A DNA stretch of 64,000 bases from Scenedesmus sp. PABB004. Its lineage: Eukaryota. Shown piece by piece: positions 33,321 to 38,664 of this stretch; positions within the stretch are counted from its first letter, which is position 1; each line of letters opens with the position of its first letter. A program made the translations under genes and the position numbers. Location of the stretch: NCBI GenBank assembly GCA_014905635.1, contig JABVCE010000008.1, positions 1,116,001-1,180,000 on the forward strand, given 5' to 3'. Below the pieces are notes generated by a model. The model was not told the DNA's origin. It did not search any database and was given only the letters and a program-made list of their open reading frames with translations.

Positions 33321-34742
33321 ATGCACGCCCTGCGGCACGCGGCGCCCGGCGCCGCCGCTTGCACGCAGCAACGCTGCCTGGCCGCGTGCCCAGGTGCGCC
33401 GGCGGCTGCCTCCTGCGCCGCGACGCCCCGATCTGGCCGCGAGCGCGCTGCTGCCGCTGCCGCCGCCGCTCCGCACCGCAGGGCTGCGCGTGGGACCGCG
33501 GCAGCAGCGCCATGGCAGCCGCCTGGTGGTCAGGAGCACCCAGGCGAGCGGGCGCGGGCGGGGGCGTGGCGCGGGCGGGGGCGTGGCGCGGGCTGCGCGT
33601 GCTGGCGCGCGGCGCCGCTGCCGCGAGCGACGCTGCTGGGCGCTGCCGCGTCGCAGGGCGCGGAGCTGCTGCGCCAGGCGCGGGTCAAGTACGCCGCCAA
33701 GGACATGATGGGCGCGCTGAAGCTGTATGAAGACGTGCTGGCAAAGGTGGGCCCACGGCGGTGGGCGACTGGGCGGCGCCGGCGCCTGCACCGGCCGCAG
33801 CAGCACACGCGGTCGCGCGCGCGCGCGCGCCGCAGGAGGACTCGACCACGCGCCAGCGGCAGGAGGCGCTCTACGCCAGCACGGCGGTGCACGCGGCGTT
33901 TGGGGACGTCGAGCTGGCGCAGATCACGCTGCGAGGTGGGCGGCGCCGGCGCCGGCGGCGCCGGCGACGCCGGCGGCATCTGCCGCGGCGGGGGCCGCGG
34001 GCAGGGCGCCACCGCGCCGCGGCCTGACAAAGCGCTGCCGTCCACCGCCGCGCCGCGCCGCCGCGGCCGCGGCGCAGAGGCCATCAAGCAGGGGCTGGAC
34101 TTCGAGCAGGCGCTGCAGGACCCAGACATGGTGGAGCTGGTCACGTCGCCGCAGGTCGGCGGCGCGCGCCGCCGCGGGCGGGCGGGGCGCTGGGGGAGGC
34201 AGCCGTGCGCGGGAGGAGAAGCAGCCGGGCGCGCCTCGCCCTGCCCAGCGGCGTGGCACCGCCAACGGCGCGCCACCGCGCCCCGCCGCGCGCAGGTGCT
34301 GATCCAGCTCAAGCGCTTCAACCAGTCGGCGCAGGCGGCGCTGACGGCGCGCAGCCGCGCAAAGGCCAAGGCGACGATCAGCGGCAGCAGACCCGGCGCC
34401 GGCGCGGGCGCGCGCACCAAGCCGGGCGGCGCGCCGCTGGGGCAGGACCTGGGCAGCATCCTGGGCACGCCGGACAGCGACACGGCCGCGATCGACACGA
34501 GCGTGGGAGGTGCGGGCTCGCCGGCGCGCGCGAGCCGCTGGGCGCAGCTGCTGCGAGCGCTGCTGTGAGCGCGGCCGCCGGCCGCTCGCCGCCGCGCGCG
34601 CTCACGGCCGCCGCCACGGCTCGGCTCGCGGCCGCCGCCCGCAGCGATCGTCCGGCGCGTGCTGCTGGTGCTGCTGGTGGGCGTGGGCCTGGGGACGGCG
34701 TTGTTCTTCGCCGGCCTGGAAACGCTCTTCCCGAAGTACTGA
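33321..34742 (+). CDS. Putative plastid TPR-like protein with C-terminal transmembrane anchor
   Basis: Transit-like N-terminus; GAELLRQARVKYAAKDMMGALKLYEDVL, ALYASTAVHAAFGDVELAQITLR, AIKQGLDFEQALQDPD; C-terminal VLLVLLVGVGLGTALFFAGLETLFPKY*. Confidence 0.65.
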
Positions 34743-35030: not shown

Positions 35031-37392
35031 TCAGCTGGGGATGCAGGAGCAGCTGCAGTTGCTCGCGCGCGGGAAGGGGTTGACCTCGCCGACCGCCGCG
35101 CAGAAGCTCGAGAGGCGCAGCAGCACGTCGCGCGTGCAGTCGGGGCTCGCCTGCGCCTCGTTCGCGCACTGCAGCCGCCCGACGCGGAACGACTCGGTCT
35201 GGTTCCACGTGGGGATGACGCCCCGGTTGGCCATGAGCCCGAGCGGGCTCGCTGAGGGGCAGCCCTTGGTGACGTAGACGTAGCCGTCCACGCTGCCGCC
35301 GCCGACGCCCCAGCTGTTCTTGAGCTGCCAGTACTCGGAGCCGTTGAAAAAGGTGAAGGGCTCGGCCGACCCCGGCGCGGGCGGGCCGGCGCGGACCTGC
35401 ACGTTGTACCCGACCGCGAGCAGCGCGTGGTTGGCGGAGCGCGAGCGCATGTTGCAGCCCAGGTAGCCGGCGCGGTAGCTCTGCAGCCACGCCGCGTCGA
35501 CCGAGACCTTGGCCGGCGTGCGGCTCAGCGCCTGGCCGAGCGCAAACTCGTTCGCCGGCACCCACGCCCAGCCGGTGATGCCGGTGCGCACGGGGTGGTA
35601 CTGCCCAACCGCGCACGTCCCGCCGGCGCCGCCCGGGGCGCGGCTGGTGGGGTAGGCGCCGTACGACGGCGCGACGTCCGACCCCACCGCCGCGACGCCG
35701 TTGCAGGCGAGGCCGTTGAGCACGACGTGCACGTCGCCGCCGCCGGCGCAGGTGCCGGCGGAGAAGCAGTCGGCGATCTGGGCCTCGGAGAGGTCGCGCG
35801 CGGTGCCGTTGTAGCCTTGCATCAGCATCGTGCTCTCCGCGAGCGCGGCCGCGACAAACGCGTAGCTGTCTGCGCACGCGCCCGACTGCGCGGCGACGCG
35901 GCTCACCGCGCCGGCGCGGAGCCAGTCGACCGAGCGGAAGGGCAGCACGCGCGCGTACGGGAACGGCACCTGCTTGGAGCACGGCCGCGCCGCCGCCGCG
36001 GCGAGCGCCTCGGGCGGCGTGCCCCGCCCGCCGGCGCCGCGCCGGCTGCCCCAGGCGCCGCGCCGGCGGCCCCGGGCGCCGCGCCGGCAGCCCCCGGCGC
36101 CGCGCCCGGCGTCTGCGCCAGCCGGCGCAGGCTGGCCCACAGCGGCGCGGCGAGCGCGCCCGGCAGCGCGCCGGCGTCGCCGCCGTCCACGCCGGGGGCG
36201 GCCCCGCCGCGCCAGGGCAGCAGCAGCCAGTCCCACGCCGCGCGCAGCCAGCGCAGCGGCCAGGCGCCCTGCGCCGCCGGCGCGGCCTGCAGCAGGTGGC
36301 GGCCGCCCAGGGGGGCACCGCCCATGTACTGCGGCGGCCGCGGCTGCGCGCCTTGGCTGCCACCGCCGCCGCCGCCGCCGCCACCGCTGCCTCTGCTGCC
36401 GCCGCTGCTGCCCACCCAGAAGGGCCCCGACGTCGAGCCCCCCGGCGGCGCGCCGCCGCCCGGAGGCGCGCCGCCGCCCGCGCCGCCCGGAGGCGCCGGG
36501 CCGCCGCCGCCGCCGCCGCCGGGGCCGCCGCCGCCGGGCCCGCCCGGCCCCGTGGCGTTGGCGCTCGCGTTTGCCGCCGCCGCTGCCTCGGCCGCCGCCG
36601 CCGCGTTGGCCGCCGCGAGCGCCGCCGCGCCGGGGCTGGCGAGCAGCTGCGGGCGGTCCGGCCAGACGGAGATCGACGCGTCGTCCTGCGCGTCGCCCGT
36701 CCAGCGCGCCAGGAACTCGTCCGCCGTGAGCATGGAGAAGCGGTTCAGGCCAAACTGGGGCGGAGCGGCGGCGGCGCCGGGCGGCGGCGGCGTCAGGCGG
36801 CGGCTGCGGCCGCAGAGAGAGAGGCCGGTGGCCACGCGGCTGCCGGCTGGCAAGGCGCGCGCGCTGGCTGCGCACCGCGACCTCCGCGCCCGCGATCGCG
36901 TTGAGCTGCGCCGCGCGCGCGAGGTTGGCATCAAACACCGCCCGCCGCGCGGCCGCCTCGGACGCCGAGGCAAAGGAGACGTTCCACTGCGCCACCCACG
37001 CCGCCCACGCCGCGCCGGGGTCGGCCGCCGCGGCCGCGGTCTTGTTCCTGCGCGGCGCAGCGCGCGCGGCGCGTGAGCCGCCGCCCGGGCGCGGGCCGCG
37101 GGCCGCGCGCCGCAGCACGCGCCGCCGCCCACCGCTCGGCCGCCACGGCGCGCAGGATGCGCTGCGTCTCGCTTGCGCGGTCCAGGTCCGAGAAGCCCGC
37201 CGGCCAGGTGCCGCCGTTGTCGACCCAGGGCTCGCCCAGCTGCAGCACGCGCCGCGCGCCGCCCGGCGCCGGCGCCGCTGCTGCCGCCAGCTCCCCCGGC
37301 GGCGGCGCGCCGGCCGCCGCCGGCCACGCCGCGGCGCCCAGCGCCAGCAGCGCGATCAGAAGCGGCGCCAGGCCGCGCGGCGCGGCCGCCAT
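35031..37392 (-). CDS. Secreted papain-like (C1A) protein with I29 prodomain; catalytic Cys replaced by Ser
   Basis: Signal peptide; ERFNIN-like EAAARRAVFDANLARAAQLN; FGLNRFSMLTADEF; SVDWLRAGAV, QSGACADSYAF, LSEAQIADC, NHALLAVGY, YWQLKNSWG. Frame break near 36022. Confidence 0.85.
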
Positions 37393-37844: not shown

Positions 37845-38664
37845 ATGGCGCGCGAGGGCCCCGCCATCGGCATCGACTTGGGGACCACATACTCGTGAGT
37901 TGCACGCCCCGCCGCGCGCTGCCGACGCCCGTGCGTGCAGCCGCGACGCCTGTGCGCCGCGGCGTGCAGCTGCGCGCTGCCCCGCTCCGGCGCCTTCTGC
38001 CGCCGCCGCTCACCGCTGCTCACCGCTGCCTCCGCCGGCCGCAGGTGCGTGGGCGTGTGGCAGAATGACCGCGTGGAGATCATCGCCAACGACCAGGGCA
38101 ACCGCACGACGCCCAGCTATGTCGCGTTCACAGACACTGAGCGCCTAATCGGCGACGCGGCCAAGAACCAGGTCGCCATGAACCCGCGCAACACGGTCTT
38201 TGACGCCAAGCGCATGGTGCGCGCGCGCGCCGAGGGAGCGGCGGCTGCGCAGGGGGCGCGCGCGCGCCGCCCGCCCGCGTCGCGCGCCGCCCGCGTCGCG
38301 CGCCGCCCGCGTCGCGCGCCGCCCGCATCGCGCGCCGCCCGCCCGCTCACCCCGCTCACCCCGCCCGCCGCGCGCGCAGATCGGCCGCCACTACAGCGAC
38401 CCGCTGCTCCAGGAGGACGCCAAGCACTGGCCCTTTGCGATCAAGGCCGCGCCCGGGGACAAGCCGGCAATCGAGGTGACGCACAAGAACGAGGCCAAGA
38501 CGTTCAGCCCCGAGGAGATCAGCTCCATGGTCCTCACCAAGATGCGGGACATCGCGCAGGCCTACGTCGGCCTTGACCGGCCCATCAAGAAGGCGGTCAT
38601 CACGGTGCCCGCCTACTTCAACGACTCGCAGCGCCAGGCGACCAAGGACGCGGGCGCGATCGCG

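Follow-up and report, generated by a model that had tools for sequence, protein, structure and literature searches.

The 64,000-nucleotide window analysed here, from Scenedesmus sp. PABB004 (contig JABVCE010000008.1), carries on its minus strand an intron-bearing gene for a papain-like protein in which serine occupies the position of the catalytic cysteine (Table 1). The extent of the gene agrees with that of the initial annotation of this DNA, and tblastn found it as a single copy within the window. Its last part (35990-35031, minus strand) translates stop-free into 319 residues (P0001), which include ...VAAQSGACADSYAFVAA.... Pfam assigned this product to Peptidase_C1 (PF00112, clan CA; E 2e-22, 80.8 bits against a cut-off of 20.7), and the best phmmer matches to solved structures in the PDB were dionain-1 (1.3e-16) and stem bromelain (4e-16). 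An AlphaFold2 (AF2) model built from 121 aligned sequences (predicted local distance difference test, pLDDT, 79.6; predicted template modelling score, pTM, 0.81) was confident across the domain and fell below 50 at residues 272-285 and 295-319, in the tail. Foldseek matched the model to plant papain-like proteases, papain and cathepsins L, K and S, with dionain-1 (5a24) at the top (target-normalised template modelling score 0.83, probability 1.00, 30% identity). The gene product is a papain-fold (C1A) protein. Six cysteine positions that map by eye to the three classical C1A disulfides are present.

The catalytic site of the window protein reads ...QSGACADSYAF..., so that Ser-His-Asn replaces Cys-His-Asn, as in silicatein. 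The copy is without the catalytic Cys25 of active C1A cysteine peptidases and keeps the equivalents of His159 and Asn175. The initial annotation had placed an AGC serine codon at the catalytic Cys site of a papain-fold protein, and the translation, the Pfam match and the HMMER alignments to solved C1A proteases all bear this out. It had also described the oxyanion-hole Gln, the His and the Asn as retained, which holds for His and Asn but is only half right for Gln, which appears displaced by one residue. The Gln of the window protein lies one column off the canonical Gln column in the family alignment; HMMER aligns it with the canonical Gln and opens a one-residue insertion after it.

A word-indexed search recovered a relative of 570 residues (P0002, 63% identity to the window protein). 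It also returned 15 further clusters, which are 50-66% identical, as well as two N-terminal halves and a single ordinary C1A protein with CGSCWAF. A profile search of 1.84 billion representatives gave five clusters at E<=1e-30 (P0003, P0004, P0010, P0007 and P0030), after which the scores drop from 178 bits to the 123 bits of ordinary C1A proteins. All collected proteins were aligned to the family profile, yielding 29 family rows and 144 outside C1A rows. Twenty-two family rows cover the Ser site: the window protein, 16 database clusters (90% identity) and cluster members. Within the family, identities of 50-66% go with many invariant columns.

Serine stands at the catalytic position in all 22 of these rows, against Cys 134, Ser 4, Gly 2 and Tyr 1 among the outside rows (3 gapped). 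The next residue is Phe in 20 family rows and Tyr in two (the window protein and P0017), where 126 outside rows have Trp. The canonical Gln, six residues before the catalytic position, is present in 17 of 22 family rows and in 139 of 141 outside ones. Ser takes its place in the window protein, P0002 and P0003, and Pro in P0018 and P0019, and a Gln one residue earlier than canonical occurs in the window protein, P0018 and P0019. The His is kept in 26 of 27 family rows (139/142 outside), the exception being Thr in P0007. For the Asn the count is 24 of 27 (every one of the 134 ungapped rows outside); P0007 has Thr instead, P0013 Gly and P0030 Glu. The Trp that follows the Asn is kept in 25/27 rows, the Cys22 equivalent in 22/22, and the cleft-forming C-x-x-G-G region is broadly kept. 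One further relative, P0022 (an NCBI 'hypothetical protein' from Scenedesmus sp. NREL 46B-D3, with a gene model that retains an intron), had its site dropped from the profile alignment and reads NCSNSFAF by eye. Thus, orthologues carry Ser-Phe or Ser-Tyr and not the Cys-Trp that the initial annotation had named as counting against its reading. A sequencing error at the Ser, which it had already argued against, is rejected because the orthologues carry Ser as well, and a chance motif is rejected on the same count. As judged from these alignments, Cys was truly exchanged for Ser, the exchange is conserved and it took place independently of sponges; the nearest relatives of the window protein are green-algal.

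We placed the family in a FastTree phylogeny of 123 rows and 248 columns, from which rows with fewer than 200 filled columns were left out. The 19 family rows formed one clade with a Shimodaira-Hasegawa-like support of 100, a measure less reliable than that of a full likelihood search, on a stem of 0.69, where the median inner branch measures 0.107. Sources with a name are Enallax costatus (P0003, from EukProt, whose header 'ORF type:complete' reads like an open reading frame call on a transcript) and Scenedesmus sp.; the taxonomic range of the family rests on these two named records. Both are Scenedesmaceae, which fits the green-algal origin that the initial annotation had supposed. Our metagenome scan returned one family locus (L001) and 11 ordinary C1A loci. 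The sequences point to a small, narrow and conserved green-algal family, a single clade on a long stem. Outside it, four C1A proteins (P0044, P0051, P0057 and P0155) likewise carry a Ser at the catalytic site and for the most part retain Gln, His and Asn, but differ from the algal family in keeping a C-x-x-S-W motif and in being without the tail. Two of them, P0044 and P0155, form a clade of their own apart from the algal family, so the Cys-to-Ser change has arisen more than once. The family's weakly supported sister group (P0033, P0039, P0040, P0041, P0048 and P0056) is an unusual C1A subgroup in which the catalytic Cys is kept and the Trp after it is replaced by Ala, Val or Pro.

The second hallmark of the family is its Cys-rich C-terminal tail. 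None of the 144 outside profile-search matches reaches it (the last 40 profile positions), Pfam recognised no second domain in the 319-residue stretch of C1 domain and tail, and ESM Atlas searches with the tail and with the whole protein returned only generic Peptidase_C1 clusters. A granulin-type C-terminal domain, such as some plant proteases have, was ruled out by eye, the tail being without the paired-Cys pattern. Literature searches found no published description of the family, and the sole NCBI record seen for it is named 'hypothetical protein'. Taken together with the tree, the alignments indicate that the papain family has a further Ser-type branch, independent and as yet undescribed, that carries a tail of its own.

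Upstream of the C1 domain, the gene encodes a hydrophobic leader (Kyte-Doolittle mean 2.45 across residues 7-20) and an I29 propeptide, in agreement with the secreted protein proposed in the initial annotation; Pfam gave no match in the N-terminal region of exon 1. The end of exon 1 and introns 1 and 2 were inferred from GT and AG sites and frame continuity. On exon 2 alone the I29 match (PF08246) covers profile positions 1-36 of 59 and, at 23.1 bits (E 9.5e-5), lies just below the gathering cut-off of 24.4; exon 3 then opens with FGLNRFSMLTADEF, by our reading the usual end of I29. A tblastn search with residues 8-123 of P0002 matched 36757-36347 in the frame of exon 3. Between propeptide and C1 domain lies a linker of about 205 residues, composed of Gly, Ala and Pro. 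Because P0002 and P0018 open with the same FG(V/I)N.FS.LT.EEF...TGD.Q.D piece, again followed by a long low-complexity linker, we regard the linker as a family trait.

The linker frame and the C1 frame are one base apart, and both are open at the junction. Twenty-two GT-AG candidates restore the frame, one of which (candidate intron 3) would give a protein of 684 residues; its 14 Cys would all lie in the mature part, and it would contain 8 N-x-S/T sites. The frame change could reflect this third intron or, alternatively, an indel in the 21-nucleotide repeat or in a run of G near 36023. Open frames are a poor guide here: the locus has a G+C content of about 72-88% with long open frames in all six frames, so frame length alone is weak proof. 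The locus is covered by six overlapping open frames of 100-790 codons each. Third codon positions across 35990-35031 (minus strand) are 97.5% G+C, against 63% in the orthologue L001, a bias so strong that stop codons are rare in every frame.

Table 1. Features of the papain-like gene, in window coordinates (nt, nucleotides).
Feature	Positions	Strand	Basis or remark
Whole papain-like gene	37392-35031	minus	ATG at 37392, stop 35031-35033; intron-bearing
Exon 1: ATG, hydrophobic N-terminal leader (probable signal peptide), then region without family match	37133..37392	minus	direct reading
Intron 1, inferred, 85 nt, GTGGGC...CAG	37048..37132	minus	joins exon 1 frame to exon 2 frame
Exon 2: first two thirds of I29 cathepsin propeptide inhibitor domain	36882..37047	minus	Pfam PF08246
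Intron 2, inferred, 127 nt, GTCGCG...CAG	36755..36881	minus	links ...AIAGAE to FGLNRFSMLTADEF
Exon 3: I29 end, then Gly/Ala/Pro-rich low-complexity linker	36141..36754	minus	tblastn and reading; 3' end uncertain
Candidate intron 3, 95 nt, GTGGGC...CAG	36046..36140	minus	one of 22 frame-restoring candidates; donor hexamer as in intron 1
21-nt tandem repeat, 3.5 copies, GAAPGAA-type heptad in linker frame	36033..36106		Tandem Repeats Finder, 92% matches, score 120
Peptidase_C1 papain-fold domain, with family-specific N-terminal piece CSKQVPFPY	35259..35990	minus	Pfam, PDB phmmer, AF2, Foldseek
Gln codon CAG, 7 residues ahead of Ser (canonical oxyanion-hole Gln19: 6)	35886-35888	minus	reading and family alignment
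Ser codon AGC at catalytic Cys25 position	35865-35867	minus	HMMER alignments to solved C1A proteases
Tyr codon TAC, aligned with Trp after Cys25	35862-35864	minus	HMMER alignments to solved C1A proteases
His codon CAC, papain His159 position (SANHA)	35427-35429	minus	aligned with catalytic His
Asn codon AAC, papain Asn175 position (KNSWG)	35316-35318	minus	aligned with catalytic Asn
Cys-rich C-terminal tail, family-specific, 6 Cys, ends NCSCSCIPS, plus stop codon	35031..35258	minus	kept in all full-length relatives

The only orthologue DNA that we obtained, the metagenomic locus L001 (contig VFQS010103705.1, positions 1-1223, 1223 nucleotides), is the window's sister in the tree. The two share 214 of 314 aligned residues, with 0.295 nonsynonymous substitutions per site (dN) and 1.42 synonymous ones (dS, near saturation), a ratio of about 0.2. 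The family protein is under overall purifying selection. Both genes use AGC for the Ser, and in L001 the His codon has become ACC (Thr) and the Asn codon ACG (Thr). This locus also has an in-frame TGA at the family-invariant Cys81, where P0007 has Cys. P0007 equals the L001 product across the last 246 residues and shows two more differences just upstream, so the two could be alleles or copies, one of them perhaps decaying. In this lineage two triad residues are lost and the remainder of the protein is kept.

RNA evidence came from one run (share 0.07), an oligo-dT library of a biofilm metagenome. A 259-nucleotide contig matched 258 bases of the window (35140-35397) with one mismatch. The remaining pieces gave 34-44-base matches to GC-rich repeats, and no splice junction in the run was usable, the listed joints having sides of only 20-23 bases; stretches without coverage carry no information.

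An intron-bearing HSP70 gene lies on the other side of the ATG, on the plus strand (37847-38216 and onward; Pfam HSP70, E 1.6e-23 at 38046-38216). It starts about 450 bases from the papain-like ATG and runs divergently, the two genes having a common upstream region. The downstream neighbour, tail-to-tail on the plus strand (34569-34742), closes with a short hydrophobic stretch, ...VLLVLLVGVGLGTALFFAGLETLFPKY, directly before its stop codon, which looks like a C-terminal membrane anchor; an upstream piece of the same neighbour gave only a sub-threshold BTAD match (E 0.0021).

We favour, with a probability of roughly 0.6, the reading that these genes encode a conserved, secreted family of non-proteolytic, ligand-binding pseudo-proteases. 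Since Ser is found in every member of a single clade, the Cys would have been replaced once, in the family ancestor. The precursor is built like that of a cathepsin, with leader, I29 propeptide, long low-complexity linker and C1 domain, to which the family adds its tail. Protein cutting was most likely lost, and the papain-like cleft was probably kept to bind a peptide or another ligand. Within the secretory pathway, the wall or the vacuole, the product may then be a pseudo-protease with a binding or structural role, its maturation presumably left to other proteases. What favours this reading is that Gln and Asn, and in one lineage His, are held less strictly than in active enzymes: Gln is absent from 5 of the 22 rows, Asn from 3 of 27, and His and Asn together from P0007/L001. 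The fold and domains, the constant Ser, the single narrow clade, the overall purifying selection and the transcript-like header of P0003 count in its favour as well. There is also a precedent in Plasmodium SERA5 which is reported to have Ser at the site and no detectable protease activity, to become active only after a Ser-to-Cys change and to show no phenotype after Ser-to-Ala (PMC4671257). The initial annotation had spoken of a silicatein-like or pseudo-protease secreted protein; its pseudo-protease half is the better supported, and a specific likeness to silicatein beyond the Ser-Tyr dipeptide is not supported.

Several observations pull the other way. The Ser is invariant and the His nearly so (26/27), where a dead site might drift more, and Ser-His chemistry is possible; however, Ser also suits the N-terminal end of the papain fold's central helix on structural grounds. 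The loss of His and Asn in P0007/L001 counts as a single event because the two are identical over 246 residues. Moreover, one of these two records (L001) has an in-frame stop, so the lineage may be a decaying copy, which would not prove that the protein can do without catalysis. Among the three rows without Asn, P0030 appears garbled around that site. To these are added the change of frame between linker and C1 domain in our gene model, and the standing of the RNA contig, a hint of expression only, as DNA carry-over is possible.

An active Ser-His-Asn hydrolase or transferase (an esterase, amidase or acyl-transferase) working on a wall or secreted substrate rather than on general proteins is a possible but doubtful alternative. 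It would account for the conservation of Ser, His, Asn, the following Trp and the Cys22 equivalent, for the broadly kept cleft region and for the propeptide, retained as in zymogens. However, 5 of 22 rows, the window protein among them, have lost the oxyanion-hole Gln or carry it out of place, and the window protein's sister lineage P0007/L001 is without His and Asn. Cys-to-Ser forms of C1A proteases serve as inactive forms (a C25S structure of cathepsin K is among the Foldseek matches), and SERA5, which bears the same Ser, points in that direction too. We consider it improbable that the window copy is recently broken or an assembly artefact, with the frame change a true or false one-base indel and not an intron. 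The one-base difference does adjoin the G run and the 21-nucleotide repeat, and LRRLAQ in the linker frame resembles the R.LQQ that precedes CSKQ in orthologues, with no GT donor between LRRLAQ and the C1 exon; at 97.5% third-position G+C, open frames also carry little weight. Yet the frame can be restored by any of the 22 GT-AG candidates, and one of these resembles intron 1 in length and starts with its donor hexamer. In addition, the columns invariant in the family are kept in the C1 domain and tail, and the RNA-library contig matches the last exon with a single difference.

The named relatives belong to the Sphaeropleales, the order that includes Pediastrum. The Pediastrum wall is stated to be 'reinforced by silica' (PMC10598416). 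This wall, together with the same Cys-to-Ser change beside kept His and Asn, leaves room for a convergent analogue of silicatein with a part in depositing or templating wall silica in the alga, the least probable of the explanations that we considered. The Ser-Tyr dipeptide of the window copy does match the S-Y-A-F motif of a cathepsin L/silicatein chimera (2vhs), but Tyr occurs in only 2 of the 22 rows, the others having Phe. In silicatein, hydroxy amino acids (Ser) are clustered a short way ahead of the His. No such Ser-rich tract is present in the window protein (CNMRSRSANH) or in the family consensus (GCNVxSSxANH, with one or two Ser), and the weak echo of a poly-Ser tract that had been noted in RSRSANH is judged absent. 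With the motif segment as query, silicatein alpha (6zq3) ranked 28th (E 0.02), no closer than any other C1A protein. We know of no silica in Scenedesmus-type walls, and found no literature linking a Ser-type papain-like protein to algal silica. In a 2014 in-silico survey, the plant and algal silicatein homologues reported are cathepsins only (PMC4163427). Furthermore, the role in silicatein of its triad (S26/H165/N185) is disputed, as triad mutants are reported to keep activity (PMC11740617). A silica role is unsupported, and the sequence comparisons show no specific kinship to sponge silicatein. Hardly more probable, and still very unlikely, is the bolder form of the idea: an independent green-algal counterpart of silicatein, equipped with its own Cys-rich tail, that would help to build the silica-reinforced, decay-resistant walls reported in Sphaeropleales such as Pediastrum. 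If true, a cathepsin would here have been recruited to biosilica for a second time, by convergence; less boldly, the protein may be the first natural case of a serine hydrolase that uses the papain scaffold on a defined wall substrate.

Known papain-fold lineages with Ser for Cys are few (sponge silicatein and Plasmodium SERA5) and their function is argued over; the algal family adds an independent case. It is compact, combining an invariant Ser, a disulfide-rich tail of its own and a retained propeptide in easily grown green algae, and is tractable for asking if proteins of this kind act as binders or as slow enzymes, and to what use a zymogen architecture is put once self-activation is lost. 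For annotation, genes of this family should not carry a cysteine protease label.

Compared with known systems, the pseudo-protease that we propose finds its model in SERA5, which is reported to keep peptide binding and to play a part that is not enzymatic (PMC4671257). In both, a papain-like domain carries a natural Ser in place of the catalytic Cys, within a secreted protein with extra flanking regions. Organism, flanking regions and biology differ, however, and the likeness is one of principle, with no kinship seen. Silicatein shares the Ser of the triad and is without the tail and linker of the algal family; it is reported to be about 45% identical to cathepsin (PMC3820600), whereas the window protein reaches only 23-24% identity to cathepsin L chains in the fold alignments, so a close cathepsin kinship is not shared. 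The nearest known systems by sequence are dionain-1 (5a24), stem bromelain (6u7d/6yce) and cathepsin L (MEROPS C1A), which provide the best matches and have the same fold and I29 propeptide. From the plant C1A proteases the window protein departs in its Ser for the catalytic Cys, its apparently displaced Gln and an identity of only about 30%, and the family as a whole in the CSKQVPFPY piece, the linker of about 200 residues and the 75-residue Cys-rich tail.

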